Assembly (NCBI GenBank): GCA_030390025.1 | Contig: JASTWF010000033.1 | Location: 2,482,001-2,546,000, forward strand | DNA from: Squalus acanthias | Lineage: Eukaryota | DNA: 64,000 nucleotides | Reading direction: 5' to 3' | In this document: positions 14,130-59,931 of the stretch, in pieces | Numbering within the stretch: the first letter of the stretch is position 1 | Layout of the letters: every line of letters starts with the position of its first letter | The notes under the pieces: generated by a model | Seen by the model: only the letters and a program-made list of their open reading frames with translations | Told to the model about the DNA's origin: nothing | The model's database searches: none | Position numbers and translations under genes: made by a program

Positions 14130-14249
14130 GTAAGGCTCTCTATATTGCTATTACGTCTATAAACCGTGTTTAACAGCATTACTGTTCTTATCTTTTACTC
14201 TCCCCTCCTTTGCTGCGGTTGTTATTCCAGGTAGAAAGAAAAATAAAGG

Positions 14250-14350
14250 CTTTCATTTATATAGAGTCTTTCACGACAACCGTACGTCTCAAAGTGCTTT
14301 ACAGCCAATTAAGTACTTTTTGAAGTCGAGTCACTGTTGTAATGTGGGTT
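14250..14350 (-). mobile_element. 3' fragment of the Deu-type SINE
   Basis: TTCATTTATATAG…CAAAGTGCTTTACAGCCAATTAAGTAC…GTCACTGTTGTAATGTGGG matches 15755-15852. Confidence 0.8.
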
Positions 14351-14990: not shown

Positions 14991-15750
14991 TTAGTCCCAT
15001 TCTCCAGTTCTTTTCCCGTAGTCCTGCAAATTGTTACCCTTCAAGTATTAATCCATTTCCCCTTTTAAAGTTAATTTATTCCCTGCTGTGCCTCTCCCAG
15101 TAATTCTGTCACTATTTTTCTTTCTCTCTGTCTCTCACTCTCCCACTTCTCTCTCTCTGTTTCTTGCTCATAGAATCATAAAATGGTACAGCACAGAAGG
15201 AGGCCATTCGGCCCATCGTGTCCGTGCCTTCTGTTTGAAAGAGCTGTCTCATTATTCCTACTCTTTAGCCAGAGCCCTATAAAAAAATCCTCTTCAACTA
15301 ATTATCCCATTACCTTTCGACAGTTACTATTGAATCTTCTTCCACCACGTTCTCAGACAGTGCATTCCAGATCACAATAACTCACTGCAAAAAGAAAATT
15401 CTCCTCATCGCTCCTCTGGTTCTTTTGCCTATTACCTTAAATCTGTGACCTCTGTTTAACCACCTTTCTGCCACTGGATAAAACAATTGACAAATGCACT
15501 CGATCAAATCCCATCAAAGTTTTGAAATCTATATTAAATCTCCCTTTATGAAAAAGGACTAAGATAGAGAAGGTGTAAAAGGTTTCAAGTTGAGAAAGGT
15601 CAATTTTACTAAGCTGAGATGTGAGTCACCAAAAGTGAACTGGAAACAGCTACTTGAAGGTAAATCAGTGTCACAGCAGTGGGGGGCATTCAAGGAGGAG
15701 ATAGTGACGGTTCGGAGCAAATATGTTCCCACAAAGAAAAAAGGAAAAGG

Positions 15751-16192
15751 AAGACTTGCATTTCTATAGCGCCTTTCACGGCCAGCGGACGTCTCAACGC
15801 GCTTTACAGCCAATGAAGTATATTTGAAGTGGAGTCACTGTTGTATTGTGGGAAACACGGCAGCCCATTTGCGCACAGCAAGGTCCCACAAACAGCAATG
15901 TGATAATGAACAGATAATCTGTTCTGTTATGTTGATTTAAAGGTAAATATTTGCCAGGACACCGGGGATAACTCACCTGCTTTTCTTCGAAATGGTGACA
16001 CGGGGTCTTTTACGTCCACCTGAGAGAGCAGACGGGCTCTCGATTTAACGTCTCATCCGAAAGACGGCACCTCCGACAGTGCAGCACTCGACTGGAGTGT
16101 CAGCATAACTTTATGTGCTCAGGTCCCTGGAGTGGGACTTTAAACCACAACCTTCTAACTCAGAGGCGAGTGTGCTACCAACTGAGCCACAG
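15751..16192 (-). mobile_element. near full-length tRNA-derived Deu-domain SINE (SacSINE1/AmnSINE1-like) inserted into an old CR1 fragment
   Basis: Reverse strand: A box TGGCTCAGTTGGTAG, B-box-like GGTTTAAAGTCCC, central CTTTCGGATGAGACGTTAAATCGAG…CTCTCAGGTGGACGTAAAAGA, and an L2-like tail AAAGGCGCTATAGAAATGCAAG. Flanks 15560-15750 and 16193-16345 are CR1-like. Confidence 0.85.
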
Positions 16193-16359
16193 TTGACAAA
16201 AAGAATGGGACTCAACAAACTAGAGCCCAATGAATGTAAAGGAGCATACAGGGAAGTATAAGGGAAATAAGGGAAGCGTTTCTCAGATACTGAGAGCTCA
16301 CAACTACAGAGAGCCAACAGGAGTATATAAATTGCAGGGGTTAAAAAGGATTTCATAGG

Positions 16360-19060: not shown

Positions 19061-20937
19061 TGAAATCAAAGAGAGGAGATGAAAAAAGTATTATCTAATT
19101 AAATCAAGGAAAACACAAATATATTTCATAAACAGATAAAGAGCAATGGGATAACAAAGGAAAGAGTAGAGTCTATTAGAAACCAAAAAGGTAACCTGTG
19201 TGTAGAGGTGAAAGACATGAGTATGGCTGTTAAGGAATACTTTGTTACTGTCATCACAGAAAAGAGTAGTAATGCAGATACTGTAGTTAAAGAGGAAGTG
19301 TGTGAACTATTACATGAGCTTAGCATAAAGAGAGAGGAAGTATTAAGACCTTTTGCATGTTTGAAAGCAGATAAATTGTCAGGCCCGGATGAAATGTATC
19401 CGAGGCTGTTAAGAGAGGCAAGAGAAATGTGCGGGTTAGGTTGATTTGGCTATGATAAATTGACCCTTAGTGTTAGGGGGGGATTAAATATGTGGGGTTA
19501 TGGGTATAGGATGGGATATGTTAGGGGGAATTAAATATGTGGGGTTACGGGGGTAGGGTGGGATATGTGTACTGTGGGGATTAAAGCAGGGACAGGGTAC
19601 TGGATTTGGATGATCAGCCATGATCGTATTGAATGGTGGAGCAGGCTCGACGGGCCGAATGGCCTACTCCTGCTCCTAGATTCTATGTTTCTATGTTTCT
19701 ATGAGAAGATTGTTTCTGAGAGACTTGATTGAATGTTTTGAGGAGGTAACGAGGAGGGTCGATGAGGGTAGTGCATTTGATGTAGTCCACACAGATATTA
19801 GCTAGGCGTTTGACAAGGTTTCAATTGACAGGTTGGTCAAAAAAGTAAAAGCCCATGAGATCCAATGGAAAGTTGGATCCATAGTTGGCTCAGTGACAGG
19901 AAGCAAAGTGTAATGAACAATGGGTGTTTTTTGTGAATGGAAGACTGCTTCCAATGGGATTATGCAGGTCTTAGTACCAGGTGCCTTGCTTTTTGTGGTA
20001 TATATCAATGATTTAGACCTCAATATAGGGGGCATGATTAAAAAGTTTGCAGATGCTACAAAAATTGTCCCTGCGTTTGGCAGTGAGGAAGAAAGCTGTA
20101 GACTGCAGGAAGATATCAATGGACTGATTAGGTGGGCAGAAAAGTGGCAGAAGGAATTCAATCCGAGGAAGTGGGGAGGGCTAACAAAGCAAGGGAATAC
20201 ACAACAAATGGTAGCATACTGAGAATTGTAGAGGAACAGAGGGACCTTGAAGTGCATGCCCACCGATCCCTGAAGGTAGCGGGACAGGTAAATAAGGTGG
20301 TTAAGAAGGTATACTGGATAATCTCCTTTTTTTAGCCGAGGCATAGAATGTAACAGCAGAGAGATAATGCCAGAACTGTAAAAAGCACTAGTTAGGCCAC
20401 AGCTAGAATACTGCGTACATTTCTGGTTACTTTACAGGAAGATGTGATTGCACTAGAGAGGGTACAAAGGAGATTTACGAGGATGTTGCCAGGACTGGGG
20501 AATTTTAGCTATGAGGAAATATTGCACAGGCTGGGGCTGCTTTCTTTGGAGCAGAGGAGGCTGAGGGAAGATTTAATTAAGATGCATAAAATAATAAGAG
20601 GCTTGGATGCAGTAGATGGTAAGCACCTATTTCCATCAGCGGAGTGATGAATGACGAGGGGCATAGATTTAACGTTATTGGTAGAAGGATTCGAGGGGAG
20701 TTGTGAATTCATTTTACCAAGTGGGTAGTGGGGGTCTGGAACTCACTGCCTGAAAGGGTGGTAGAGGCAGAAACCCTCATCACATTATAAGGTAGATTTG
20801 CCACAACTTTCAAGGCTACGGACCAAGAGCTGGAAAGTGGGATTAGGCTGAATAGCTCTTTTGCGACCAGTGCAGCCACGCTGGGCCGAATGGCCTCCTT
20901 CTGTGCCGTACATTTCTATGATTCTATAATTCTATGT
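19061..20937 (+). mobile_element. old CR1 LINE ORF2 3' part, interrupted at 19429-19703
   Basis: KLSGPDEMYPRLLREA, YINDLD, KFADATK and LERVQRRFTRMLPG; (ATTCTAT)-type tail near 20915-20937. Confidence 0.88.
19429..19703 (+). mobile_element. headless V-SINE (HE1-like) body joined to a CR1 3' tail, copy 1
   Basis: GTGCGGGTTAGGTTGATTTGGCTATGATAAATTGACCCTTAGTGT resembles the V-SINE conserved domain. It ends in GATCAGCCATGAT…GGCCGAATGGCCTACTCCTGCTCC…(TTTCTATG)n. Nearly identical to 43193-43456. Confidence 0.8.
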
Positions 20938-22262: not shown

Positions 22263-25095
22263 TAACAACAACAACAACAACAACAACAACAACTTGTTAT
22301 ATAGCGCCTTTAACGTAGTAAAACTTCACAAGGCACTGCACAGGATAATTATGAGTCAAACAAAATTTCACGGAGCCAGGTAAAGAGAAATTAGGGCAGG
22401 TGACCAAAAGCTTGGTGAAAGAGGTAGATTTCAATGTGCATCTTTAAGGAGGAAAGAGAGGTAGCGAGCCGAAAGTTTTAGGGAGTAAATTCCAGAGGTT
22501 AAGGCCGAGGCGACAGAAGGCACAGCCACAAATCATTGAGCGATTATCATCAGGAGTGCTCAAGAGGCCAGAATTAGAGAAGCGCAGATATCTCGATGGG
22601 CGGGGGGACGGGGTTGTGGATGAAAAAGATTACAGAGATAGGGAGAGGCGAGCCATGGAGGGATTTTAAAAAAAGGATCAGAAATTTTAAATCGAGGCGA
22701 TGCTTAACCAGGAGCAAATCTAGTAAACCGAGAGCATGGGTGATGGGCGAACGGAACTTGCTTGATTTAGGATATGTGCAGCCCTGTTTAGTATGACCTC
22801 AAGTTTCCGTAGGGTAGAATATGGGATGCCAGCCAGGAGTGCATTATCATATTCAAGTCGAGAGGTAACAGAGGCATGGATGAGGTTTTCACCAGCGGAT
22901 GTGCTCAGGCAGGTGTGCAGACGGTCGACGTTACGGAGGTGGAAATAGGCACTATTAGTTATGCTGCAGATATTTGTTCGTAAGCTCATTTCAAGGTGAA
23001 ATACGACACCAAGGTTGCGAACAGTGTGGTTCAGCCTCACAAAAATGTTAGGGAGAGGGATGGAGTTAGTGGCTAGGGAACAGAGTTAGTGGCAGGGGCC
23101 AAAAACAATGGCATCGGTCCAACCAATAATTAATTCGAGAACATTTCAGCTCATCCAGAACAGTACGTATGACAAACAGCCGAGAGAAGAGGTAGTGAGG
23201 TAGAGCTGGGTGTCGTCAGCCTACATGTGGAAACTAACGCTGTTTTCGGATGATGTCGCCAAGGGGTAACATGTATGAGAAATAGGAGGGGGCCAAGGAT
23301 AGTTCATTGGGGGACATCAGTGGTAACGATGCGGGTGCGTGAAGAGAAAACCATTGCATGTGATTCTCTGGCTACGATTAGATAGATAAGAATGGAACCA
23401 GGCGAGTGCAGTCCCACCCAGCTGGACGACGGTGGATAGGCGTTGGAGAAGGATGAAGTGGTCAACCTTGTCAAAGGCTGCAGACAAGTCAAGAAGGACG
23501 AGGATGGAGAGTTTACCTTTGTCACAGTCACAAAGGATGTCATTTGTGACATTGATGAGAGCCGTTTCGGCCCTGAGGCAAGGGCGGAAGCCTGATTGCA
23601 GGGGTTCAAACAAGGAATTGAGGGAAATATGCCACGGATTTGGACACATTCAATTACTTTGGAGAGGAAAGGGAGGTTGGAGATGTGGTGGTAATTTGCA
23701 AGACCGGTTAGGTCAAGGGTTCTTTATTGAGGAGAGTTTGCTGATGGCAGTTTTGAATGAGAGAGGGAGCTGTGACTAGAAGTTTACCGCAAGGATCGGT
23801 TCTTGGGCCCAAGCTATTCACAATCTATATGAATCATTAGGATGAGGGATATAATTGTAACATTTCCCAATTTTCTGATGATACAAAGCTAGGTGGCAGT
23901 GCCAGTTGTGAAGAGGTTATGAAGAGGCTTCAATGGGATCTCGACAAGCTCAGCGAGTGGGCGAGGATATGGCAGATGGAAAATAGCGTGGATAAGTGTG
24001 AAGTTACCCACTTTTGTAGAAAAAACAGAAATGCAGAGTATTTCCAAAATGGTGAAAGATTGGGGAATGCAAATGCTCAAAGGGACCTTGGTGTCCTTGT
24101 ACATGAGTCATTGAAAGTGAATGTGCAGGTGCAGTAAGCCATTCGGAAGACAAATGTTATGCTGACCTTCATTACAAGAGCATTTGAGTACAAGAGTAAA
24201 TAAGTCTTACTCCAATTATATTGGGCCTTGTTGAGACCACACCTGGAGTACTGTGTACAATTTTGGTCTCCTTACCTAAGGAAGGATATACTTGTCATAG
24301 AGGGTGTGCAACGAAGGTTCACGAGATTGATTCCTGGGATGGCAGGACTGTTGTATTAGAAGAGATTGAGTAAACTAGGCCTGTATTCACTTGAATTCTG
24401 AAAATTTGAGAGGGGATCTCATTGAAGCATACAAAATTATTACAGGGCTTGATCTGCTGGATGCTTGGAGAATGTTTCCCTTTGCTGGGGATTCCAGAAA
24501 CAGGGGCCACAGCCTCAGGATAAAGGGTAGGCCATTCAGGACTGAGATGAGAAGAAATTTCTTCCCACAGAGGTTGATGAATATTTGGAATTCTCTACCC
24601 CAGAGGGCTGTGGAGCTCAGTCATTGGGTATATTCAAAACAGAAGTTGCTAGATTTGTGACAACTAAAGGCATCAAGGGATATGGCGATAGGGCCGGTGA
24701 ATGGAGTTGAGGCAGAAGAACAGCCATGATCTTATTGAATGGCGTAGCAGGATCGAACTGCCGTATGGCCTACTCCTGCTCCTATTTCTTATGTTCTTAT
24801 ATTCTTAGTTCAGGGCTAGTGCAGGGGGGAACCTTAGAGGAAGTTTGGCCCGGTGGGCTAGAGGAAGAAAGGGAAGTGGCAGAGGCAGCTGAACGGATGG
24901 TCTCAATCTTAGAGACAAATATGTCCATGAGCTCCTTACACTTGTTATCGGAGGTGAGGGTGTGCGACACAGGGGAGAGGGGTTTAAGAAGACGGTTAGC
25001 AGTCGAAAATAGGAGCCGGAATTTATCTTTTCATTCCAAAATGATTCTGGAATACTGAACAATTTTGGCAGATGAGAGCAGGACCCGAAAATGAA
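22263..25095 (-). mobile_element. L2 LINE with a (TTG)n tail at 22263-22293, interrupted by the CR1 at 23776-24803
   Basis: L2 motifs EPLQSGFRPC…ETALINVTND, LVLLDLSAAFDKVDH and AYFHLRNV…VTSRLEYDNALL. 3' end AAGGCGCTATATAACAAG. L2-like sequence resumes at 24804. Confidence 0.88.
23776..24803 (+). mobile_element. 5'-truncated CR1 nested in L2
   Basis: LQWDLDKLSEWA, LRGDLIEAYKI and RTEMRRNFF; TTCTTATG tail. Confidence 0.92.
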
Positions 25096-30932: not shown

Positions 30933-31055
30933 GATAGAGTAAGTAAGGGGAACATTTGCCACTGACTGACTTGTCATTACCAAATGACCGAACTTTGATC
31001 ACGCAGTGAGATGATTTGGAATGACCTCTCCGAAAGGTTGTTGGTGCAGATTCAA

Positions 31056-32460
31056 TGGGCTCAGTTGGTAGAAAACTCACCTCTGAGTCAGAAGGTTGTG
31101 TATTCAATTCCACTCCAACGACGTGAGTACAAAAATCAAGGATGACACTCCAGTCCAGCATTTAGGGAGCGCGGCACTGTCAGAGGGTCAGTACTGAGGG
31201 AGCGCCGCACTGTCGGAGGGGCAGTACTGATGGAGCGCTGCACTGTCGGAGGGACAGTACTGAGGGAGCGCTGCACTGTCGGAGGGGCAGTATTGAGGGA
31301 GCCCGCACTGTCGGAGGGGCAGTACTGATGGAGCGCTGCACTGTCGGAGGGGCAGTACTGAGGGAGCGCTGCACTGTCGGAGGGGCAGTACTGATGGAGC
31401 GCTGCACTGTCGGAGGGACAGTACTGAGGGAGCGCTGCACTGTCGGAGGGGCAGTATTGAGGGAGCCCCTCACTGTCGGAGGGGCAGTACTGATGGAGCA
31501 CTGCACTGTCGGAGGGGCAGTACTGAGGGAGCGCTGCACTGTCGGAGGGGCAGTACTGATGGAGCGCTGCACTGTCGGAGGGTCAGTACTGAGGGAGCGC
31601 TGCACTGTCGGAGGGACATTACTGAGGGAGTGCTGCACTGTCGGAGGGGCAGTAATGAGGGAGTGCAGCACTGTCGGATGGGCAGTAATGAGGGATCGCT
31701 GTACTGTTGGAGGGTGAGTACTGAGGGAGCGCTGCACTGTCGGAGGGGCAGGAATGTGGGAGTGCAGCACTGTCGGGTGGGCAGTACTGAGGGTGAACTG
31801 CACTGTCGGAGGGACAGTAATGAGGATGCGCTCTGCTGTTGGAGGGACAGGGAGCAATGCATTGTCGGAGGGACAGTATTGACGGAGCGCTGCACTGTCA
31901 GAGTAAAAGTACTGAGGGAGCGCTCTACTGTTGCCGAGGCAGTACTGAGGGAGCGATGCACTGTCGGAGGGGCAGTACTGAGGGAGAGCTGCTCTGTCGG
32001 AGGGCTGTACTGAGGGAGCGATGCACTGCCGGATGGTCAGTACTGAGGGAGCACTGTATTCGCGGAGGGGCATTACTGAGTTAGCGCTGCGCTGTTGTAG
32101 GTGCATTACTGAGGGAGACTGTCCTTTCGGAGGGATCTGATTTAGGATGCGACGTTAAACCGAGGCCCTGTTTGCTCTCTCTCAGGTGAATGTAAAAGAT
32201 CCCATGGCAATATTCGAAGAAGAGCAGTAGAGTTATCCTTAGTGTTCTGGTCAATATTTATCTCAATCAACATCACTAAAACAGATGACTTGGTCGTAAT
32301 TGCCATGCTGTTTGTGGGAACTTTCTATTTACAAACTGCCTGCCGTGTTTCCTGGAGTGCAACACAGACTTCACTTCACCAGTACTTCTTTGGCTCTAAA
32401 GTGCTTTGCGTCATCCCAAGGTCGTTAAAGGCGCTCTATAAATGCAAGTTTTTCTTTCTT
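31056..32460 (+). mobile_element. Deu-type SINE with an internally expanded 33-bp minisatellite
   Basis: Head GGGCTCAGTTGGTAG…CTCTGAGTCAGAAGGTTG at 31056, array at about 31150-32135, then SINE body GACGTTAAACCGAGGCCC…TAAAAGATCCCATGGC and tail AAGGCGCTCTATAAATGCAAG. Confidence 0.9.
31150..32135 (+). repeat. 33-bp minisatellite (CAGTACTGAGGGAGCGCTGCACTGTCGGAGGGG)n
   Basis: Roughly 30 directly visible units, degenerating toward the 3' end. Confidence 0.97.
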
Positions 32461-36865: not shown

Positions 36866-39586
36866 GTGGAGTATATCAGAGTGTTGCAGTGAGGGGACCG
36901 GAGTTTATCAGAGTGGGGATGATCTATCAGTATTACAGTGAGTGGTGTGGGGTATATCAGAGTGTTACAGTGAGGGGTGTAGTGTATATCAGAGTGTCAC
37001 AGTGAGGGGTGTGGTGTATATCGGAGTGTTACAGAGAGGTGTGTGGGGAATATCAGAGTGTTACAGTGAGGGGTGTGGTGTATATCAGTGTGTTACAGTG
37101 AGGGGTATGGTGTATATCAGAGTGTTATTATGAGTAGTGTTGGGTAAATCAGACTGTTAGACTGAGAGTTGTACAGTATATCAGAGTCTTAAATTCAGGG
37201 GCGTGGGGTATATCAGAGTGTTATAGTGATGGGTGTGGCGTATATCAGTGTTACAACGTGGGTTGAGGTCTACATCTGAGATTTATAGGGATGTGGGTGT
37301 ATATCAGGGCGTTGCAATAAGAGGCTTGGTGTATATATCAGAGTGTTACATTTAATGGGGTGTGGTATATCAGAGTGTTATAGTGAAGATTGTGGGGTAT
37401 AGTATTGTGTTACATTGATGGGTTTAGGGCATGTCAGATTCTTACATTGTGTGGTGTGGGGTTTACCTGAGTGTTACAGTGAGTTGTGTGTGGTATATCA
37501 GAGTGTTACAGTGCCTGGTGTGCGGTGTATCAGAGTGTTACAGTGTGGATTGTAGGGTATATTAGATTCTTACAGTGAGGGGTGCGGGTTAAATCAGATA
37601 GTTACAGTGTGGTGTGTGTGGTATTTCAGAGTCTTATAGTGTTGGCTGTGCAGTGTATCAGAGCTTTGCCTTTAGGTGTGTGTGATATATAAGAGTGCTT
37701 CGGGGGTGTGGTGTATATCAGAGTTTTACAGTAAGGGGTGTGGAGTATGTCAGACTGTTACAGTGAGGGTTGTCGGGGATATCCGAGTGTTATAGTGTGG
37801 GGTGTGGGGTATATAAGAGTGATACATTGAGGGGTTTATCACGGTGTTACAATGTGGGGTGTAGTGTATATAAGAGTGTTACAGTGAGGGTTGTGAGGTG
37901 TATCAGAATGTCACAGTTAGTGGTGTGGGATATATCAGAGTGTTATAGTGTTGGGTGTGGTGTATATGCGAGTGATACATTGAGGGGTTTATCACGGAGT
38001 TACAGTGAGTGGTGTGAGGAATATCTGAGTGTTACATTGTGTCGTGTGAACTATATCAGAATCTGTTAGTGATGGAGTTGGAGGGTTTTGGGGGATATCA
38101 GAGTGTTATAGTGTGGTTTGTGGAGTATAAAAGAGTGTTACATTGAGGCATGTATCAGGGTGTTACAGTGAGGGTGTGGGCTATATAAGAGAGCAAATTT
38201 GAGGGGTTTAACGGGTGACATATCGAGGGGTGTGGAGATTATCATATTATGTTAGAGTGTGGGGTGTGGTGTATATAAGAGTGCTACATTGAGGGGTGCG
38301 GGGTGTATCCGCGTGTCACAGTGAATGGTGTGGGGTATAAAAAAGTGTTACATTGAGAGGTATGGGGTGTATCAGCGTGTCACAGTGAGTGGTGTGGGGT
38401 ATATCATATTTTTACACTGTTGGGTGTGGGGTATATAAGAGTGTTATATTGAGCGGTTTATCAGTGTGTTACAGTGAGGGGTGTGAGGTATATCAGAGTG
38501 TTAAATTGTGGGGATTGATGTATATCAAAATGTGTTACAGTGATGGAGTTAGAGTATATCAGAGTGTTACAGTGAGGGGGCCGGAGTATATAAGAGGGGA
38601 ACGAGGTATATGAGTATTACAGTGAGAGGTGTGGGGTATATCAGAGGATTACAGTGAGTGGTGTGCGTGTTTTCAGTATTAGAGAGAGGGGTGTGTGGTA
38701 TATCAGAGTGTTAGGGCGAGAGATTTGGGGAATATCAGAGTGTTACAGTGAGGGGTGTAGGGTATATCAGATTGTTACAGTGAAAGGTGTGGCTTAAATC
38801 AGAGTGTGGTGTGTGTGGTATTTATAGTGTGTTATAGGATTGGCTATGTAGTGCCTCCGAGATTTGCTGTGATGAGTGTGTGATATATAAGAGTGCTTCA
38901 TGGGTGTGCTGTATATCACAGTGTTACAGTGAGGGGTTTGTAGTATGTCAGAGTGTTACAGTGAGGGTTGTGGTGGATATCAGAGTGTTATAGTGTAGGA
39001 TGTGAGGTATGTAAGTGTGTTACATTGAGTGGTTTTGGGTGTATCAGAGTGTCAGAGTGAGTGGTGTGGGTTATATAAAAGTGTTACATTGAGGGGCATG
39101 GGGTGTATCAGAGTGTCACAGTGAGGGGTGTGATGTATATCGGTGTGTTACTGTGTGGGGTGTGGGGTTTATTAGAGTATTACAGTGAGGGGTGTGGGCT
39201 ATATCATATTGCTACAGTGAAGGTTTTCAACTATATCAGAGAATGTTACAGTGATGGAGGTGGATTATATCAGCTTGTGTCACAGTGAGGGTTGTGGGGG
39301 ATATCAGAGTGTTATAGTGTAGGATGTGAGGTATGTAAGTGTGTTACATTGAGGGGCATGGGGTGTATCAGAGTGTCACAGTGAGGGGTGTGGGGTATAT
39401 CGGTGTGTTACTGTGTGGGGTGTGGGGTTTATTAGAGTATTACAGTGAGGGGTGTGGGCTATATCATATTGCTACAGTGAAGGTTTTCAACTATATCAGA
39501 GAATGTTACAGTGATGGAGGTGGATTATATCAGCTTGTGTCACAGTGAGGGGTGTGCGGTATGTCAGATTGTTACAGTGAAGGGTG

Positions 39587-40489
39587 TGTACGAAAGGCTG
39601 ATATTTAAAGATATTTAGTAGCCGAGAATCATATATGTATAACTTCAAGTGTAGCCATTGAGCAAAAAGTATTACCCAGAATTACTCCTGAGTAACTAAA
39701 AAAGCTAAGACGTATTCAAAATGTAGCTGCACAGTCAAAAGCAGTGGTGAATACGTTTAGATAACAAACAACCACAGACTGTGAGTGAGGGTTAAATTGC
39801 AAAAAAAAAATATGATGATAAGTAGAAATTCGAATTCACTGAACAAAACTAATTGCAACGATATTTAAAAAATAATTAGTATAAGGACATAAACTGAGAG
39901 AGATCATGGAGATAAGGTATTTAACTGGTAGATTATAGTGAGATAGTTTGGATACATCAAGACTAGTGAAACAGCGCTGATATGGGCCCTTGGTATAAAG
40001 GCCTTGTACCAGGAAATCTAGAAATGAAAAAGATAAAGTAAATTCCAATGGGGTGAAAAACTATAAATCAGATAACACTGAACATGGCAAAGTTGGTGGA
40101 AAAATACTGGAAAGGCAGGAATGCTACCTTAGTCTGAGTGACAATAGTATTTTGACCATTTGAGCCAATTATAAAAGGTGATTTTGTTAAAGACCATATA
40201 TGGACAGTGGCCAAACCAACTTTTGATAAGAAAAGGTTTAAAACCTCGATACCCAAAGAACAGCTTCAGACAGACGTACTGCGAGGACAAAGTAACAGAC
40301 TTAAGACGACATTAGCTTTTGTCCGAGAGGTTCCAGAGATCTAGGGCTGCGAGCTACTCATTAAAACTATTGCCTCATATTAAGTATATTACGCTGTATG
40401 CTTAATAAATCTTCATCTATTGCTCAAACATACTGGCTGCTGCCTATTGGTGTCTTGTCCAAGAAAACAGTGATGGTTAAGATCTTACA
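39587..40489 (+). repeat. 5' LTR (903 bp)
   Basis: TGTACGAAAGGCTG…TAAGATCTTACA; TATAAAA near 40170 and AATAAA near 40404. Confidence 0.92.
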
Positions 40490-41593
40490 AATTGGCACCT
40501 TTCAGATAGGACAAGACAAAGCGGCTAGTATTGAGTAATAGATTTGACCTGGAAAGTAGCTTCCTGATCAGCTGCTGCTTCTGAGGAGGGATAAACCCCG
40601 TGGAGAGTGCCCGTGAATTCTGCGCCGATAATTATTGATGTTAGAGGCTTGTTAAAAAAATCACCAAATGGCTAGTAAAAGTTGTGTTAATGCATATAAG
40701 ATTAAGTTAGACAGCGGCGCCTTTGCGGAGGAAGTACAGGTTTTATTGACCGAGTCCCCTTTCAAAAAGTGATAAACTTTATTCTGGAAAATCTGTCTCA
40801 GAAAAAACACAATGGGTTAAGAGCGAAACATAGCCAGTTGGTTTAGCATAAAGTGCAGGAGAGAGAGGGAGAGATAGAGAAGGAAAAATATCTAATTTGC
40901 AGGCTAACCAATCTGAAAACTCAGCAAAGGAAGGGAAAAAACAGGGATTTCGAAAGCCAGGAAAAGCTGCTGAGACGCTGATGTAAAAAGAGGAAAAAAA
41001 AGAGAAATTTAAAGCTTTACCGACATGGAAGTTATTAACATCTGTGCCGAGAGAAATAAAACACCAGATTTGCTCAGTGAAAGGAACCTTAAAAAAAGCT
41101 GGAATTTCAGTTTGTGTGAAAGTGTGCGTTAAAGTGTAAAAGTTTTCCTGACTATGAATGTTTAAGAAGTTACAGTATTTCTTTTCTCTGAAAGTCTATC
41201 TATAAAACAAAACGTGTTTGTTATGTGTGTTTTAGCTCCACCCACTTCTCTGTGTTAAAAGCGTTTAAAACTTTTGTTTTGTCTTGGATTTTGGAAGTTT
41301 TAAGAATGTGCGAAGAAGATTATGCCCCAAGAATTGACAAAAAAACTTTGCAATACAACTTAAGTTAAGCTGGTGTGTAAAAACTGAGATGAACAACAAA
41401 AAGTTTGTTTAACAAAAGATTAACTTTCAGTCTAAGATTTAACCCTGGAGTCACGGTTGCTATCGTGAAATCTTCCAAAGCAATTTGATTTGATTTGTTA
41501 AAATGTGAAAAACTAATTTTCCTCCAGTTATATTCAATGTTTTTACAGTATTTTGGAAAGGCATCTGAAAAAAGGAGAATAAGAAAGATAATT

Positions 41594-42354
41594 GCCCGAA
41601 AATTAAACCTAATAAGCGAGAGTACGCACTGTGTACTCTCGCATATTAGATCCCGAATTGCCGGTTTCCTGCATGTACTGCGCATGCGTGGGAAACCGGC
41701 ACTTCGTGAATTGCAAAGGGGGCGGTTCCTAAGTGAACCGCGTGCGCACTACAGGCTGTGCGCACGCAGTGGACTTAGTTTTTTTTTCAGCTTTGAACGC
41801 GCAGGTAAGTGGTGAAGATTTTACACATAAAGAAAGCAGGCATAGGACCCCCTTTTAACAAGGTAAGTAGTTAATTAAGTGTTATTTTATTTTTTATTCA
41901 ACAGGTTTATCTTTTTTATAGACTTTAAAGAAAGGTAAGTTTATTTTTATAACTTTTAAAAAGATTATACATTTTTTCAAAAATTTAATTTTTTGTTTAA
42001 AGTGGTTAATTTATTTAACTCTACTTATTTTACTAATGTGATGGCTTTTTTAAATTTAATTGAGGTTTAGCTGTTCTTTTGGGGGTTTGTAGTATTCATA
42101 GCTTTGACAGCTCTTGCCGTCAAAACTATGAATGAAAGATGGTGTGCTGCCATTGGCTCTAACTGAATCACGTGATCCCAGAGCTCGCACAAACTAATTG
42201 CGCCTCTGGGGCACGCACACACTGCACGGTTGCAACAAGAAGAGGCTCTGAAACTAAAGTTCGTGTGGGCCCCAAACAAAAAGGTAGGCGCGGAGTGCGA
42301 TATCGCGGGGAATCCTTACCCCCGCGGGAACCATCCATGTTTAATTTCTGGGCC
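41594..42354. mobile_element. non-autonomous TIR DNA transposon (MITE-like, possibly PIF/Harbinger) nested in the LTR element
   Basis: Left end GCCCGAAAATTAAAC and right end GTTTAATTTCTGGGCC are imperfect TIRs, with ATT on both flanks. Homologous to 54990-55451 (inverted) and partly to 59932-60687. Confidence 0.75.
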
Positions 42355-43192
42355 ATTGTAATTTACTGTTTTCTACTAGCATGTGCGATTTTGTTTTGTT
42401 TTATCTGATCTGTTCGTGTTTAGTTAAAGTGTGAAAACACAACTGTGTTTTTCGATCGGGAATTTTTTTAAAAATTTACGTGAAGTGACGCAATTGCATG
42501 TGTCTGCCAATGTTTCACTCCACCTTCTTAAAAACATGCAAAGGAGTTAACCCTTTCCACCGACAGATGTTTAAGTTCACCGAGCAACAACTTTAGTATG
42601 AAATTTAAAGATATTGGAAATTAAGTTTCTTAATTTTAAATTAATATTTCCCCAGAGTGACAGAAGGAAAATTTTGATTTGATAAATTAACCCCTTGGGC
42701 TCTAAGCAGAGCGACCTTCGGATTCTCTTCTTTCTTTTGTTATATTGAAGTTACCTTGTAAACTAATTGCAGCACTTCTGTCTCTAATGTTAAAACACTG
42801 TGTAAGCCATCTAGCCTCAGAATCACTTGTTTCTGAAATTGGAAATGGAAGATAAATTGATAGAAATGAAATTGAACATTGAGAAAACCTGTCAGTTCAA
42901 CAATACTACTATTTGGATTTTGGCATAATTTTGAAATAACAAAATCGACTCGGGCACTATATATTGGGTAACTTTTGGGAAAATAAAAGATCCTCTAAAA
43001 TAATGATGAATAATTAGTGTTAATAATAAATAATTGTACTGAAAAGTAAAGTTCCTCCAGAGCTCATGAATGAGATATGAATGGTAATTAATGGGATGTG
43101 TAAAATGGAGAGAGGAAGTGATTGAGTGAATGAGATAGAAACAGGATAATTACACCAACAATTGGGAATTTTCCAAACTTTCTAATGAAAGT

Positions 43193-43456
43193 GTGCGGGT
43201 TAGGTTGATTTGGCTATGATAAATTGACCCTTAGTGTTAGGGGGGATTAAATATGTGGGGTTATGGGGATAGGATGGGATATGTTAGGGGGAATTAAATA
43301 CGTGGGGTTACGGGGGTAGGGTGGGATATGTGTACTGTGGGGATTAAAAGCAGGGACAGGGTACTGGATTTGGATGATCAGCCATGATCGTATTGAATGG
43401 TGGAGCAGGCTCGACGGGCCGAATGGCCTACTCCTGCTCCTAGATTCTATGTTTCT
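43193..43456 (+). mobile_element. headless V-SINE/CR1-tail chimera, copy 2, with AAAGT target-site duplication
   Basis: Near-identical to 19429-19703; AAAGT at 43188-43192 and 43457-43461. Confidence 0.82.
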
Positions 43457-45183
43457 AAAGTCAGGAAAGTGTAGTTAAGAACAGTAGATTGATAGTTTTC
43501 TCTTGGAGACATTTGTGTCCCTGCATTTAATGAACTTTTAAGAAAACTGAATTTGATAGTCTGGCCACTAGCCACGACATCGGGACCATGCAGAGGAAGA
43601 TGAACAAAGACCTCCACAAAATTTTTTGATATGATCAGCTGAAAGCCCGAGAATGGCTTGCATCTGATGGCATGTTTGACATAATATGGAAATACCAATG
43701 TGAGTTTGCAAATCTAATTCGTTACTATGAAGCAATTACCATCCAGGAATGTATGTTGAATGTGCACTGAAGAAGGGTCTCAGACATGCTCAGTTACTTG
43801 ACAACACCAAGACATGAAATGGTTAATGTGGCTCAGGAGAGCGAGACAACTTTTAAAGCATTGAAACATAAACCATCGAGAAACTATCTAACTAATGAAA
43901 CAATCAGAATAGAGTTAAACACACTGGTACCTGTTAGAGGGATTGAAATTTAAGTTGAAGTGGAGAGTTACATGGAATTTGGATTTGAATAATTGAGGGC
44001 TAAGGATAAATCATGCTTAGTAAGCATTACCCACAAGATGGATACGAGAAAAAGAGAGATCTGGGGAATCGTTTAAGTCCATGATTTGTTGATTAGATGT
44101 TAAACTGTAATGTCACATAAAATGATTGCAAGAATAAATTTAACTTGTAATTGTGTTTTGTAGGTAACAGAGCGTGGGGAAAAAACAGTCCGAATCCAGT
44201 ATGAGGTGGTTTTGGTGGTGCCTCCTGTGTCACTACTACCGCAACTATCATGCTTTACGGGTCTAACAGGACCTGTCCCTTCAACCAATATGTTTAACTC
44301 AATATCAAAACTTATGCTTAAGTGAAACTGACAGTAAATGTGATACTAAAGTATGAGCTGCACAATTATGTGGCACAAATTCGATACTACATTCCCCTCT
44401 TGTCTGAGGGTTTTAGTGAGCTCATGATGCGACTGAACTCCTCCCTAAAGCATTTTTATATTTTGGAGCAAGACAACTCGAGAATGGATGTTGAAATTGA
44501 CAGCATAGGGGACAACTCACACTGGGGCTCAATATATCAGCACAGCCTTACGTTCGTATTATTTCACACGCTCTGGTAGTTCTCCACCTTGTAATGATAG
44601 TGTATTTGATATATGTAGACTATGTAGTATGACTTTGATACATAAGCAAATTGTGTACTCATGCCTATGACTAACCAGCACTAACAAATTAATTGAGCAC
44701 ACCGAAAGAGGAGATCCGAAGCAAAGTAGAGGAGACCCCAGGCGGGGTAAGATCAGGAAAGATAGAAGAAACAGAGGCTACCCCAGGTGGGGCAGATTTC
44801 AAACACCGGAACAGTGAATTGAATTTAAGTAAGGGATCAGATCAGGGCCGTTACTGCCAGATCGTATGATGCAGCATTAGGAGCAGCGGGCGGAGGAAAA
44901 ATGATAGACTGGGACGCACTAGAAGGCAAGACATATCAGCACGGCCGGCATGATGGTTGGGGAGACCCCGGGGTGCACTCCAATCCTGAGGATAGGCGGT
45001 CGGCCCCTGTGAGTGTCATAGTTAGCACCCAGGCCTATAATGAAAAGGGGATAAACCCGCATTTGAGAAGCGCTCCGTTCCCCTCAATTAGGAGACTCAA
45101 ACTTGCAGCAACGCTTGTCAGAGAATAGATTGAAGTAGTCGAGGAATCAATGTTTAAAACATTCCATCATCGAGGTGTGGACT

Positions 45184-46088
45184 TGTAAGAAAGGCTGAAA
45201 TTTAAAGATATTTAGCAGATGAGAATCATATATGTGTAACTTCAAGTGTAGTCATTGACCAAATCTTATTAACCATATTTACCCCTGAGTAACTAAAAAA
45301 GCTAAGACTTATTCAAAACGTAGCTGGACAGTCAAAAGCAGTGGTGAATAAGTTTTGATAACAAACAGCCACAGACAGCGAGTGAAGGTTAAATTGCTTA
45401 AAAAAACATGTTATGTTGCTAAGTAGAAATTAGAATTCGCTTATCTAAACTAATTGCAACGATATTTAAAAAATAATTAGTATAAGGACATAAAATAAGA
45501 GAGATCATGGAGATAAGGTATTTAACTGGTAGATTATAGTGAACTAGTCTGGATACCTCAAGACTAGTGAAACAGCGCTGATCTGGGCCCTTGGTATAAA
45601 GGCCTTGTACCAGGGAAGCTAGACATGAAAGAGATAAAGTAAATTCCAATGGGGTGAAAAACTATAAATCAGATAACACTGAACATGGCAAAGTTGGTGG
45701 AAAAATACTGGAAAGACTGGAATGCTACATTAGTCTGAGTGACAATATTATTTTGACCATTGGAACCTATTAAAAAAGGTGATTTTGTTGAAGACCATCT
45801 ATGGACACTGGCCAACCAACTTTTGATAAGAAAAGGGTTGAAGCCTCGATACCCAAAGAACAGTTTCACTCAGACGTACTGCGAGGACAAAGGGACGGAC
45901 TTAAGACGACGTCATCTGTGTCCGAGAGGTTCCAGAGACCTAGGGCTGCGAGCCACTCGTTACAACTATCGCCTAATATTAAGTCTATTACGCTGTAAGC
46001 TTAATAAATCTTGATCTATTGCTCAAACATACTGGCTGCTGCCTATTGGTGTCTCGTCCAAGAACTCAGATTTCGTTAAGATCTTACA
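45184..46088 (+). repeat. 3' LTR (905 bp)
   Basis: TGTAAGA…TCTTACA form a perfect 7-bp terminal inverted repeat; collinear with the 5' LTR. Confidence 0.92.
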
Positions 46089-47478
46089 TGTGTGTGGTAT
46101 ATAATAGAGAGTGAGAGTTGTGGGATACCTCAGATTTTTAATGTGAGGGGTGTGGGGTATATCAGTGTTAGAGTAATGTGTGTGGCGTATATAAGAGTGT
46201 TAGAGCAAGGAATGTGGGATAACGCAGAGCATTACCTGAGTGGGTGTGCTATATCATAATGCTACATTGAGGGTGTGGGTTATATCAGAGTATTAGATTG
46301 AGGGTTATGAAGTATATCAGATTATGTTACAGTGTGGGGTGTGGGGTATATAAGAGTGTTACATTGAGTGGTGTGGGGTCTATTAGAATGTTACAGTGAG
46401 GGGTGCGGGCTATATCAGAGTGTTACAGTGATTGGTGTGGAGTATAGCAGAGTTGGTTACAGTGATGGAGGTGGAGTATATCAAAGTGTTGCAGTGAGGC
46501 TGCCGGAGTATATCGGAGTGGTGCGAGGTATATCAGTATTACAGTGAGGGGTGTGGGGTATATCAGAGGATAAAAGTAGGGTGTCGCGTATATCAGTTTT
46601 CTTTTCAGGGCTGTGACGTTTACCAGATTGTCAGAGCTTGGGATGTGGGGAATATCAGAGTGAATCAATGAGGGGTGTGGTGTAAAGAAGTGTTTTCCAG
46701 TAAGGGGTGTTGGCTTGATCATACTGTTAAAGTGAGTGGTGTGGGGTATACTATAGTGTTAATTTGAGAGGTGTGGGTTATATCAGCGCGTTATAGTGAT
46801 GTGTGTGGCGTATATCAGAGACTTATAGCGAGTTTTGTGGTCTATATCAGAGATTTACGGGGGTGTCGGCTATTTCAAGACGTTGCACTGAGAAGATTGG
46901 GGTAGATCAGAGTGCTACATTTAGTGGGGTTTGTACATCAGGGTGTTACATTGAAGAGTGTGTGGATTAGCAATGTCCTACAGTGAGGGGTGTAGAGCGA
47001 ATCAGATTGTAACAGTGCGGGATGTGGGTTATATCAGAGTTTTAAAGTGAAGGGTCTAGGTTATATCTAAGTGTTACAGTGAAGAGTGTGGAGTATAACC
47101 GATTGTTACAATGAGGGGTGTGTGATATATAAGAGAGTTAAAGTGAGAGGTGTGAGGTACATCATAGGTTTACGGTGAGGCGTGTGGGGTATATCAGAAT
47201 GTTACAGTGAGGGGTGTGGGGTCTATCAGAGTTTTACAGTGAGGGATGTGTCGTATACAAGCGTGTTACAGTGAGGGGTGTGTTGCAAAGCAGAGTTTTA
47301 CATTGAGGGGTGTGGGCTATATCATAGTGTTACAGTGAGGGTGTGGGTTATATCAGAGTGTTACAGCGAGCGGTGTGAAGTAAATCATTATATGTTACAG
47401 TGTCGGCTCTGGGGTATAGAAGAGTGTAGCATTGATTGCTATGGAGTGTATCAGAGTGCTACAGTGTGGGTGCGGTGT

Positions 47479-48909
47479 GGTAGAGAGAAAGCGGGGAATT
47501 ACAGACCGGTAAGCCTGACATCGGTAGTGGGGAAAATGCTAGAGTCCATTATAAAGGATGTAATAGCTGAGCATTTGAAAAACAGTGACAGGATCGGACA
47601 AAGTCAACATGGATTTACAAAAGGTAAATCGTGCTTGACTAATCTACTGGAATTTTTTGAGGTTGTAACTGGGAAAATAGATAAGGGAGAACCAGTAGAT
47701 GTGGTGTATTTGGACTTTCAAAAGGCTTTCGATAAGGTCCCCCATAAGAGATTAGCGGGTAAAGTTAAGGCACATGGGATGGGGGCAAGTTATTGACTTG
47801 GATAGAGAACTGGTTGGCGGACAGAAAGCAGAGAGTAGGAATTAATGGGTCTTTTTCCGAGTGGCAAGCAGTGACTAGTGGGGTACCGCAGGGATCGGTC
47901 CTTGGACCCCAGCTATTCACAATATACATTAATGATCTAGATAAGGGAATTAAATGTCATATCTCCAAGTTTGCAGATGACACAAAGCTGGGTGGGAGTG
48001 TGTGCAGCGAGGAGGATAGCGAGAAACTCCAGGATGACCTGGACAGGTTGGGTGAGTGGGCAGAAGCGTGGCAGATGCAATATAACGTGGATAAGTGCGA
48101 GGTTATCCGCTTTGGTGTCAAAAACAGGAAGGCAGACTATTATCTGAATGGCAATAGATTGGAAGAAGGGGAAGTGCAACGAGACCTGGGTGTCCTTGTG
48201 CACCAGTCGCTGAAAGTAAGCATGCAGGTGCAGCAGGCGGTGAAGAAGGCAAATGGTATGTTGGCCTTCATAGCGAAAGGGTTTGAGTATAGGAACAGGG
48301 ATGTCCTGCTGCAGTTGTACAGGGCCTTGGTGAGACCACACCTTGAGTACTGTCTGCAGTTTTGGTCGCCTTATCTGAGGAAGGATGTTCTTGCCATGGA
48401 AGGAGTTCAGCGAAGATTCACAAGGCTGATACCTGGGATGGCAGGCATGACATATGAGGAGAGATTGGGTCGATTGGGCTTATACTCACTAGAGTATAGA
48501 AGATTGAGAGGGGATCTCATCGAAACATATAAAATTCTGACAGGTCTGGACAAACTAGATGCAGGAAGAATGTTCCCGATGGTTGGAGAGTCCAGAACCA
48601 GGGGTCATAATCTACGGATAACGGGTAAACCATTTAGGACAGAAATGAGGAAGAATTTCTTCACCCAGAGAGTGGTGAACCTGTGGAATTCTCTACCACA
48701 GAAGGTAGTTGAGGCGAGGTCATTAAATATATTCAAGGATGAGTTAGATATATTTCTTAAAGCTAAAGGTATCAAGTGATATGGGGAGAAGGCAGGTACA
48801 GGGTACTGAGTTTAGATGATCAGCCATGATCTCATCGAATGGCGGAGCAGGCTCGAGGGGCCGAATGGCCTACTCCTGCTCCTATCTTCTATGTTTCTAT
48901 GTTTCTATA
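47479..48909 (+). mobile_element. young 5'-truncated CR1 inserted in the 32-bp satellite
   Basis: Almost uninterrupted ORF2 (47479-47796 and 47793-48779), with one frameshift near 47790 and a late stop. All RT motifs present; (TTTCTATG)n tail. Confidence 0.97.
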
Positions 48910-50285
48910 TAAGAGTGTTGCATTGAGGGGTTTATCAGGATGTTACAGTGAGGGTTGTGAGTTAAATCAGAGTGTCACATTTTGGAATGTGAAGTATATC
49001 AGATTGTTCTACATTGATGGAGTTGGAGTATATCAGAGTGTTACAGTGAGGGGGCTGGAGTATATAAGAGTGGAACGAGGTATATCAGTACTACAGTGAG
49101 AGGTGTGGGGGACATCAAAGGATTACAGTGAGTGGTGTGAGGGATATCAGTGTTAGAGAGAGGGGTGTGTGGACTATCAGACAGTTTGAGCGAGGATTGT
49201 TGGGAATATCAGTGTGTAACAGTGAGGGGTGTGGCGTGAAGAAGTGTGTTACAGTGAGGGATGTTGGCTGTATCATAGTGTTAAAGTAATGGGGGTGGGG
49301 TATATCGTAATGTTACAGTAAGGGATGTGGAGTATACCAGAGCGTCAATTTGAGGGGAGTGGTATATATCAGAGCGTTATAATGATGGGTGTGGCATATA
49401 TCAGAGTGTTACATTTAGTGAGGTGTGGTATATTAGAGTTTTACAACGAAAAGTGTGGGGAATAGCAGATTGTTACAGTGATGGTTGCTGTGCGTATCAG
49501 ATTGTTACAGTGACTAACGTGGGGTAAATCAGAGTGTCACGTGAGTGGTTTAGGTTATATCAGATTGTTCCAGTGAGGGGTGTGGTGTATATGTGATTGT
49601 TACATTGAGTCGTGTAGTGTATATCAGAATGTTACAGTGAGTGGTGTTGGGTGTATAAGCGTGTTACAGCGATGGGTGTGGGGTATATCAGAGTGTTACA
49701 ATGATGGTTGTGGCGTAAATAAGAGTGTTTCAGTGTAGGGTGTGGGGTAAAGCAGTGTGTTACAGTGAAGGGTTTGGGCTATATCATAGTGTTACTGTGA
49801 GGCTGTGGGTTATATCAGAGTGTTACAGCGAGGGGTGTGGGGTGTATCAGAGTGCCACAGTGAGTGATGTGGGATGTATCAGAGTGTTACAGTGTTGGGT
49901 GTGGGGGATATCACAGTGTTACATTTAGGGGTTTATCAGGGTGTTACAGTGAGGGGTGTAAGATATATAGAGTGTTACTTTGTTTGCTGTGAATTATATC
50001 AGATTGCGTTACAGTGATTGAGTTGGAGTATATCAGAGTGTTACAGTGATGTTCCGCAGTATACAAGAGTGGTACAACGTTTATCAGTATTACAGTTGGA
50101 GGTGTGGGGTATATCAAAGGATTACTTTGAGTGGTGTGAGGGATATCAGTGTTAGAGTGAGGGATGTGTGGTATATAAAAGTGTTAGAGAGATGGAATGT
50201 GGGGAATATCAGCGTATAACAGTGAGGGGTGTGTGGTAAAGAAGATTGTTACAGTGAGGGATGTTGGCTATATCATAGTGTTAAA

Positions 50286-53200: not shown

Positions 53201-53716
53201 CACTGCTTGATTTGCACCCTTGATTTCACTGCCTTCCACTTTTGCTTTTCTCCTTCCTGCCTTTTGTTTCTATCCTTGCTTCCCTTTCCTCTGTCTACCT
53301 GCACCGGTTCCCAACCCCCTGCCATTTTAGTTTAAACCCTCCTCAACAGCACTAGCAAACACTCCCCTCAGACATCGGTCCCAGCCCAGACCAGGTGCAA
53401 ACTGTCCAGCTTGTACTGGTCCCACCTCCCCCAGAACCTGTTCCAATGTCCCAGTAATTTGAATCCCTCCCCCTTGCACCATTCCTCTAGCCACGTATTC
53501 ATCTGAAATATCCTTCTATTTCTACTCTGACTAGCTCGTGGCACTGGTAGCAATCCTGAGATTACTACCTTTGAGGTCCTATTTTTAAATTTACCTCCTA
53601 ACTCCCTATATTCAGCTTTTAGGACCTCATCCCGTTTTTTACCTATATCGTTGCTACCTATATGCACCACGACAACTGGCTGTTCACCCTCCCCCTCCAG
53701 AATGCACTGCAGTAGC
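50286..53716 (-). mobile_element. CR1 LINE from mid-ORF1 (esterase) to the 3' tail, with TTAAA target-site duplication
   Basis: ORF1 VHIGSNDIG…VVISGLLP…DSLHL and ORF2 RT pieces. CATAGAAA tail; TTAAA at 50281-50285 and 53717-53721. Very similar to 7017-8815. Confidence 0.95.
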
Positions 53717-54989
53717 TTAAAGTGATGGGTGTGGGTTAAATCATATTATAACAGTGAGGGATGTGGGATATTTCAGAGTGTTATTTTGAGGGGTTTTGGT
53801 TATATCAAAGCGTTAAAGTAATGGGTGTGGCATATATCAGAGTGGTACATTTAGTGGGGTGCGGTAAATCAGAGTTTTATACTGAAGAGTGTGGGGAATA
53901 ACAGTGTGGTACAGTGAGGCGTGTTAAGCGTATCAAATTGTTACAGTGAGCGTTGTGGTGTATATCGGATTGTTACACTGAGTGTTGTGGGGTAAGTCAG
54001 TGTTACAGTGAGGGGTGTAGCGTATATCAGAGTGTTACAGTGAGGGGTGTAGGGTATATCAGACTGTTACAGTGAGGGGTGAAGTGTATTTCAGAGTGTT
54101 AGCGTGAGGGGTGTGGGGTATATCAGAGTGTTACATTGAGGGGTGTGGAGTATATCAGAGTTTTACACTGAGGGTTGTGGGTGATATCAGAGTGTTACAG
54201 TGTGGGTATAAAAAAGGGTTACATTGAGGGATGTATCAGGGTTTTACAGTGAAGGGTGTGGGGTATATAAGATTGTTACATTTACTGGTGCATCAGGGTC
54301 TTAGAGTGAGGGGTGTGGGGTAGATCAGAGTGTTAAAGCGAGGTTTGAGGTCTATATCAGAGATTTACGGTGGCGTGGTGTATTTCAGGGCGTTGAACTG
54401 AGAGGTTTGCTGTTTATCAGAGTGTTACATTTATGGGGTGTGGGATATCTGAGTGTTGCAGTGAAGAGTGTGGGGAATAGCAGTGTGTTACAGTGAGGGG
54501 TGTGTGGTATATAACACTGCTGAACTGAAGGATGTATCTGGGTGTTACACTGAGGGGTGTGGCGTAAATCAGTTTGTTACAGCGAGGTTTTAGATCGATA
54601 TATGATATTTATGGGGGTGTGGGGTATATCAGGGCGTTGCACTGAGATGTTTGGTGTATATCAGAGTGTTACATGTTGTGGGGTGTCGTATAACAGTGTA
54701 TTACCATGAAGATTATGGGGAATAGCATTGTGTTACAGTTAGGGCGTATCGGATTGTTACAGATCGGTGTGTGGGGTATACCAGAGTGTTAAAGTGAGCG
54801 GTGTGGGGTATATCAGAGTGTTAAAGTGAGTGGCGTGGGGTAAATCAGAGTGTTACTGTGAGGTGTGTGAGGTATATCAGAATGTTACAGTGAGCGGTGT
54901 GGGATATATCAGATTGTTACAGTGCGGGGTGTGGTGTATATCAGAGTGTTACAGTGAGCGGTGTGGGTTAAATCAGAGTGTTACATTGG

Positions 54990-55451
54990 GGAGCTAAACC
55001 TCAATTTTTTTTTAAAAAGCCATCACATTAATAAAATAACTATAGTTAAATAAATTAACCACTTTTGAAAAAAATTAAATTCTTTTTAAAAGTTATAAAA
55101 ATAAACTTACCTTTCTTTAAAGTCTCCAAAAAAGATAAACCTGTTGAAATGTTTTTTAAATAATACTTAATTAACTACTTACCTTGTTAAAATGGGGTCT
55201 TACGCCTGCTTTCTTCATGTGTAAAATCTTCAACACTTACCTTCCCGTTCAAACCTGAAAAAAAACTTAGTGCGCTGCGTGCGCACTGCCTGTAGTGCGC
55301 ACGCGGTTCACTTAGGAACCGCCCCCTTCACAATACCCGAAGTGCCGGTTTCCCGCGCATGCGCAGTGCATGCAGCAAACCGGCACTTCGGGACCTAATA
55401 GGCGAGAGTACACAGTGCGTAATCTCCCGTATTAGGTCTAATTTTCGGGCC
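54990..55451. mobile_element. truncated copy of the TIR element at 41594-42354, in inverted orientation
   Basis: Reverse complement of 41594-42070; ends TAATTTTCGGGCC followed by AAT. Confidence 0.85.
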
Positions 55452-55454
55452 AAT

Positions 55455-59915: not shown

Positions 59916-59931
59916 GGCTGACAACGACCAT

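Follow-up and report, generated by a model that had tools for sequence, protein, structure and literature searches.

How a minisatellite comes to lie inside a SINE, and whether it grew there, arrived with its host or was copied in from another locus, is the question raised by positions 31056-32460 of the 64,000-nucleotide stretch of Squalus acanthias DNA analysed here (the window). An earlier note described this site as a minisatellite caught expanding inside a SINE, with the SINE acting as a dispersal vehicle for such repeats. We have examined the anatomy of the site, the origin of its repeat unit, the related arrays in the window and the routes by which they might have spread.

A SINE copy interrupted by a 33-bp array

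The array-bearing copy (A31) lies on the forward strand and consists of a SINE head (31044-31155, 5′ end approximate), a tandem array that unit-by-unit alignment resolves into 30 units of 33 bp (31156-32135) and a SINE body with its 3′ tail (32136-32460). The head includes an A box (31057-31068) and an altered B-box-like stretch (31100-31111). When compared with an unexpanded copy of the SINE at 15751-16192, the head (31058-31158) matches at 80% across 102 bp, and for the body and tail (32141-32452) the figure is 75% across 315 bp. The local alignment scores are 103 for the head and 233 for the body and tail, and the best scores in 200 dinucleotide shuffles are 33 and 27, respectively. For the array, TRF reports a period of 33, 29.2 copies and 81% matches, and the consensus unit occurs in the window at 31352-31384. 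The joins are exact: the head runs into unit 1, and the last unit into the body, at the place where the unexpanded copy holds a partial unit.

These features confirm that the arrangement of head, 33-bp array, and body with tail is real. The bracketing of about 30 units by SINE head and body therefore stands as first described; the flanks are ‘intact’ only in the sense of being full-length, since they have diverged by ~13% from the family. Both palindromes attributed to the unit are indeed found in the array consensus (31352-31384), with the qualification that AGCGCT is the array state and the copy at 15751 reads AGTGCT.

The repeat unit is a segment of the ordinary SINE

The unexpanded copy occupies 15746-16198 on the reverse strand, with the ends of the family deduced from the loose ends seen at 15745/15746 and 16198. 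It keeps unit positions 13-33 (16089-16069), or 21 of the 33 bases, and exhibits a net loss of 11 bp at 16089/16090. The state of the wider family was read from contigs of 4 of the 24 listed runs, representing four organisms, that were placed on this copy (23,883-120,768 contigs per run). This reading rests on the 24 of 2,885 loose-end rows and the 40 of 216 letter rows listed, and the contigs used are biased toward the copy at 15751.

At 16089, the commonest of the loose ends listed for each of the four runs (1010, 1168, 1313 and 638 contigs; agreement 0.53-0.62) has 12 letters in place of the single one in the copy at 15751 before the head resumes. These letters complete the unit in 4 of 4 runs, and thus the family carries one whole unit and the 11-bp loss is private to the copy at 15751. 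The observation that the unexpanded SINE holds less than one unit is consequently correct for this copy and reflects a deletion in it, not the state of the family. The earlier note had named a SINE consensus without the 33-mer as grounds for giving up its interpretation, and the presence of the 33-mer in the family reading of all four runs shows that these grounds do not apply. With the whole unit present in every run, and with two of the three arrays in the window positioned at this site, the proposal that the unit originates from a fixed segment immediately downstream of the head is borne out, and we consider it almost certain that the 33-bp unit derives from the SINE.

The family is dispersed and of high copy number, with loose ends that pile up at both termini in three of the four runs (among the rows listed). 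No array-type loose end occurs among the 24 of 2,885 listed. Because contigs break at arrays, a contig-based family reading under-counts array-bearing SINE copies. The window also holds a tail-only fragment of the same family (14235-14348, reverse strand), and there appear to be two variants of the SINE tail at 15781-15790, one in the copies at 15751 and 14246 and the other in A31 and a second array-bearing copy (A58, described below). The unexpanded SINE itself lies within an A-rich stretch, where it interrupts in antisense the open frame of an apparent LINE (15500-16330).

An A box is found both in A31 and in the copy at 15751. The B-box region of A31 is altered; in the family, a B-box-like motif results from the letters that predominate at 16141 and 16144. 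ARAGORN did not score the SINE head of A31 as a tRNA, and Rfam produced nothing at gathering score in the window, with only chance-level, non-tRNA matches for two heads. Over its last ~34 bp the SINE is similar to the 3′ terminus of a LINE copy (22285-22315; 82%, E 0.001). This LINE (22285-23720, reverse strand) is decayed, has a (GTT)n tail and is a candidate for the type of partner element that may have mobilized the SINE; a reverse-transcriptase fragment (RVT_1) was matched in it with an E value of 4.9e-06, below the cut-off, in one of three pieces scanned. The partner LINE presumably belongs to the L2 clade, and the SINE family is presumably SacSINE1/DeuSINE.

Anatomy of a plausible seed

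Direct inspection of 16069-16089 together with the loose end reveals that the unit in the SINE can form a 12-bp stem with one G-T pair and a 5-nt loop. Each end of the unit carries the motif GTGC, and the two occurrences, at a distance of 33 bp, lie in a context where six of seven letters are alike. A short bounding repeat is an accepted starting point for minisatellites in the available parts of PMC6947457 and PMC3389668, and the hairpin and the GTGC motifs 33 bp apart make a plausible seed for duplication.

The hairpin may have helped the first slip. DNA folding of the 21-nt core yields −4.8 kcal/mol with the native T at position 16 (T16) and −1.6 kcal/mol with the C that the arrays carry there (C16). 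Given that C16 weakens the hairpin of the array, hairpin strength does not explain continued expansion. We rejected a strong structure for the array, for which three units fold with a z of −1.82 and 9 of 200 shuffles are as good, and likewise a G-quadruplex, for which there is no match with loops of at most 12 nt and matches appear only with loops of at most 20 nt. Folding of the head region of the deleted copy at 15751 is unremarkable (z −0.59).

Two further arrays of the same unit

Two more arrays with the same 33-bp consensus are present in the window, both on the reverse strand. The first belongs to A58 (58455-59915) and has 32 units (58767-59820) placed at the same internal SINE site as in A31, between a head that has lost part of its sequence (59821-59915; score 40, against at most 25 in 200 shuffles) and a full body and tail (58455-58766). 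The other array (A55, 55740-56989) has 38 units and a fragment, is 13.7% diverged, and shows no SINE head or body on either side (scores of 16 and 19, at the level of shuffles). SINE head and body therefore bracket two of the three arrays in the window, at exactly the same site in both flanked cases, and the terminal units run on into the SINE on both sides in these two and on neither side in A55. Two of the three near-full-length SINEs in the window bear arrays.

All three loci exhibit a unit taken from inside a SINE, at least four head-to-tail units, and a unit type that is common to the loci, which are among the attributes of SINE-derived satellites. A 20-nt motif of the unit had no matches in viral contigs and matched two metagenome contigs and two bacterial genomes; these were single matches, which we take as chance.

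An assembly artefact, or an unrelated minisatellite that was juxtaposed with a SINE by chance, is extremely improbable as an explanation of the site. The length of the array is that given by the assembly, which leaves some room for an artefact, yet most units differ from each other, as is not expected of a collapsed or stuttered read. The same insertion point is also used twice, and the family reading of the SINE includes the unit.

Age and local turnover of the arrays

The array of A31 comprises two parts of different age. Units 1-14 (31188-31648, forward strand) are recently homogenized, at ~5% from consensus, and include a five-unit block duplication (exact matches of 98 and 82 nt at lags of 164 and 165) as well as T at unit position 11 in five units. 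Units 15-29 (31649-32135, forward strand) are 14.1% from consensus and have few variants in common. The flanks differ from the family by ~13% in A31, as given above, and by ~15% in A58, as estimated from private changes in 382 ungapped columns. Units 15-29 are as diverged as the flanks, and therefore no less than half of the array must be of about the same age as the host copy. The picture of a repeat caught in the act of expansion thus suits the first 14 units, with their low divergence and block duplication, and does not suit the older half.

Signs of local turnover are not confined to this locus. A58 has A at unit position 23 in eight units and T at position 30 in seven, the latter in A58 only, and block duplications are evident in A31 and A58 and in no part of A55. 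A test for higher-order lags gave p 0.0015 at lag 2 for A58, p 0.135 for A31 and p 0.59 for A55.

A probable single founding event for the three arrays

The consensus sequences of A31, A58 and A55 are identical at 33 of 33 positions, and they depart from the copy at 15751 by C for T at position 16 and G for T at position 33. Neither position occurs among the 40 of 216 letter rows listed, all of which reach a majority of ~54% or more in some run. Because positions 16 and 33 are not among these listed majority changes, T is apparently the predominant letter of the SINE at the two positions. The probability of an identical consensus by chance would be 0.018 if the host units had each drifted by 4% beforehand.

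The 69 old units provide further information on these positions, with C16 in 46, G33 in 57, T33 in 5 and A at position 17 in 10. A17 is the product of CpG decay on the opposite strand, and the ten units that have it point to C16 as the ancestral state in the arrays. In the last unit, A58 keeps the SINE-type T33 and A31 has G33. Of the 68 old units in which position 1 is occupied, 25 are variant at it, and both A and T are found in each of the three arrays. The variable fraction is 5 of 14, 5 of 12 and 15 of 38 old units in three blocks, against a background of 10-13%; the binomial p values are 0.024, 0.004 and 3.5e-6, with a p of 1 in the final four units of A58 (0 of 4), figures to be read with the caveats that position 1 was chosen after looking, that array units are not independent and that only three arrays are compared. 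Old units differ at 9.2, 6.5 and 8.2 of 33 positions within arrays and at 8.0, 8.7 and 7.5 between arrays, and so are not more alike when they belong to one array than when they come from two.

The competing explanation is that each array was born independently from the unit resident at its locus, with the shared letters arising through a C16 SINE subfamily and recurrent mutation at the junctions. The seed anatomy is available in every SINE copy, and the arrays carry locus-enriched variants and block duplications with no common order of variants between them, all of which speaks for such births. In the accessible text of PMC3389668, moreover, most of the human repeats that derive from Alu arise when the element inserts or later. 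However, a slip from GTGC to GTGC leaves T33 at every junction, in conflict with G33 in 57 of the 69 old units, and three separate T-to-G changes plus three separate position-1 polymorphisms would be needed. We regard independent births as distinctly unlikely.

Given one consensus, the same two departures from the SINE and a shared variable position, one founding event, followed by copying of a seed that already had several units, is favoured over separate births, and the three arrays probably have a single origin. The view that each copy seeds its own array, as implied by the earlier note, is accordingly not favoured by the shared consensus and its two departures.

Possible routes of spread

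The course of events that we rank first, and that we hold as a tentative preference, has a seed carried by a SINE subfamily and then expanded in place. It would begin with slippage or unequal exchange at the 33-bp hairpin segment bounded by the GTGC near-repeat, whose anatomy is evident in the SINE, leading to a tandem duplication. The internal units of the founder would then have acquired C16 and G33 and become variable at position 1. In the third and least certain step, a SINE subfamily with a short multi-unit seed would have been retrotransposed to many loci by its partner LINE. Soon after insertion, when units were still near-identical, copies in repeat-rich regions may have grown to ~30 units, and parts of the arrays have gone on turning over locally, as is seen in A31 and A58. 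There is no indication of a function for the arrays, or of an effect on any gene or on the organism.

Carriage by the SINE accords with the use of one site in both flanked arrays, with their similar lengths and with the lack of an internal T4. A precedent in the window for an element that carries an internal duplication is provided by a different, 269-bp element present at 19425-19693 and 43189-43457. The two copies are 98-99% identical, have unrelated flanks and the same start, and constitute a young retroposon-like family; both hold an internal two-unit 47-bp duplication, and the LINE-type tail ends in short repeats.

Several observations weigh against the carriage of a seed. The flanks of A31 and A58 are 70.5% alike, compared with 75% and 73.7% to the unexpanded copy. 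A31 and A58 agree against the unexpanded copy at 30 sites, of which 20 show the family letter; of the other 10, 4 were set aside as alignment-ambiguous or at contig ends, leaving ~6 credible sites against an estimated ~3 expected, a difference short of significance. A55, moreover, is without any SINE flank. The flank comparison and A55 also count against carriage of the whole array. With regard to the latter, there is in addition no excess of common unit-variant order between the three arrays (54 observed versus 61.5 ± 8.7 in 300 permutations), and no target-site duplication above background was found, the longest matches being 5-6 bp, as in the background, and the copies being old. Inserts driven by L2 elements often lack target-site duplications. 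The check for common variant patterns and target-site duplications that had been suggested was thus run within the window, and neither rose above background. A role of the SINE as a dispersal vehicle is possible, and is weakened by the variant order, the target sites and the one array of three that is without flanks.

A more extensive form of carriage would have the whole element of 1.4-1.5 kb, array included, transcribed and retrotransposed as a SINE-VNTR composite comparable to SVA, with an L2-type LINE as its driver. The similar lengths of 30 and 32 units accord with this, as do old units that are as old as the flanks and radiate from one sequence, the presence of both SINE ends (a minor form in reptiles, in the available portion of PMC10702118), and the finding that no run of four or more T precedes the tail in A31 or A58. 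The last point says little, however, because the unexpanded copy also lacks an internal T4. The unit-variant order that such copying should preserve is not common to the arrays (with the caution that only three are compared), the position-1 letters of A31 and A58 fail to line up from either end, and the target-site duplication is again missing. We judge this origin of the arrays also to be distinctly unlikely. The broader proposition that a SINE subfamily of cartilaginous fishes once retrotransposed with an internal VNTR of up to 1 kb, as a polymerase III, L2-driven analogue of SVA, seems to us unlikely to a slightly lesser degree. If it were true, a VNTR-carrying SINE subfamily would have planted one minisatellite family throughout the genome, and some of its copies would afterwards have been stripped of their SINE ends or become long satellites.

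Ranked second, and somewhat unlikely in our assessment, is spread at the DNA level after one founding event, in which ectopic gene conversion or break repair would use the homology of head and body, with resident SINEs as landing pads. This would explain how the same array consensus occurs without clear kinship of the flanks, and how A55 comes to have neither SINE end and to be a neighbour of unrelated arrays. It also suits a window in which 17 tandem arrays occupy 20,231 of 64,000 bases (32%), and in which two of three near-full-length SINEs bear arrays even though the commonest family reading is a single unit, although contigs break at arrays, such that the commonness of the single unit under-counts array-bearing copies. 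Both array-specific changes replace T with G or C, which is the direction expected of GC-biased conversion, with two of two being too few to test. On the other hand, old units at ~14% and flanks at ~13-15% imply that copying had to occur near the time of insertion and then stop, and there are no common runs of variants between arrays.

Repeat-rich surroundings

Tandem repeats of other kinds are abundant in the window. A 22-bp purine-rich array of at least 312 units (1-6936) runs off the start of the window. A 67-bp minisatellite (8815-9259) lies at one end of an inverted LINE fragment, and 48 bp of its unit (83%) recur at the other end (6969-7016). A 32-bp repeat forms four or five blocks that have one consensus (36929-54985) and are separated by LINE copies and a 0.9-kb duplication; the blocks probably derive from a single old array that insertions have split. 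At 55451-59952 there follow four arrays that abut or nearly do so, namely A55, an unrelated 33-mer, a 42-mer and A58, and this cluster is bracketed by oppositely oriented copies of a dispersed repeat (54992-55450 and 59953-60560). An origin of the 42-bp array from a CR1 tail, suggested by eye, was unsupported by blastn (best E 0.05). The unit of a 36-bp minisatellite at 62840-63392 matches the reading-frame end of a LINE copy (22611-22645; 81% over 37 bp, E 2.5e-4), and no LINE flanks were found around this array.

Papers on sharks, in the parts available, report that simple tandem repeats are more frequent on small chromosomes and toward chromosome ends, with the units unnamed. The tandem-repeat content of the window resembles this pattern and no more than resembles it. 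The 33-bp family may be one source of such repeats.

Comparison with known systems

No description of the 33-bp family, including searches with unit motifs, was found in the literature; it may be filed in Repbase, Dfam or the supplements of papers, which lie outside the search. The SINE itself, at ~455 bp with a promoter-box head, a LINE-like tail and very high copy number in several organisms, is like the SacSINE1/DeuSINEs of cartilaginous fishes (PMC5499810, PMC4824008), for which the accessible text of PMC5499810 gives copies of up to 463 bp. The words ‘tandem’ and ‘minisatellite’ are absent from the main text of PMC5499810 as available.

The family fits within the SINE-derived satellites, a kind of repeat described in squamate reptiles as sSat1-3 (Vassetzky, Kosushkin and Ryskov 2023, PMC10702118). 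On the basis of the available part of that paper, the two systems are alike in that the tandem unit comes from the interior of a SINE, tRNA-related in reptiles and putatively so in the shark, and in that one dominant unit recurs across loci with variable unit number and alternating subvariants. They differ in SINE family and animal group, in unit length (67-290 nt for the sSats, 33 bp in the shark) and in their ends, because a single SINE end is retained at most sSat loci, those with two ends being a minor form, whereas two of the three shark arrays have both. The sSats are reported to be subtelomeric, and the same text treats their occurrence outside squamates as uncertain. The shark family extends SINE-derived satellites beyond scaled reptiles, and it offers a clean test case in which the segment of origin can be seen together with both flanks, a plausible seed motif and more than one array. 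It could therefore serve to separate retrotransposition, conversion between loci and repeated birth as modes of spread, a matter that reviews have left open.

Minisatellites derived from Alu and B1 elements are known in mammals, and the Haber-Louis model proposes duplication between flanking repeats of 5-10 bp (accessible parts of PMC6947457, PMC9659126 and PMC3389668). These resemble the shark arrays in having a unit from inside a SINE, a short direct repeat at its bounds and later local expansion, and the bounding repeat of the shark unit is 4 bp exact (6 of 7 letters) compared with the 5-10 bp of the model. Most human cases involve a single locus and few units, and multi-locus families account for 185 of 5,932 clusters in the available text of PMC3389668; the shark unit, in contrast, forms ~1-kb arrays at three loci in 64 kb.

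A different comparison is with elements that carry a VNTR as part of their own structure. SVA is a polymerase II, L1-driven composite. The shark case is instead a single SINE with its own segment amplified. As far as the available sections indicate, the SVA and LAVA elements of apes (PMC4432496) are similar to it in having a GC-rich VNTR within a non-autonomous element that could travel along, and the internal repeats of LTR12 (PMC3389668) likewise place a VNTR inside such an element. For SVA, mobility together with the VNTR has been demonstrated, whereas for the shark SINE it is a possibility.
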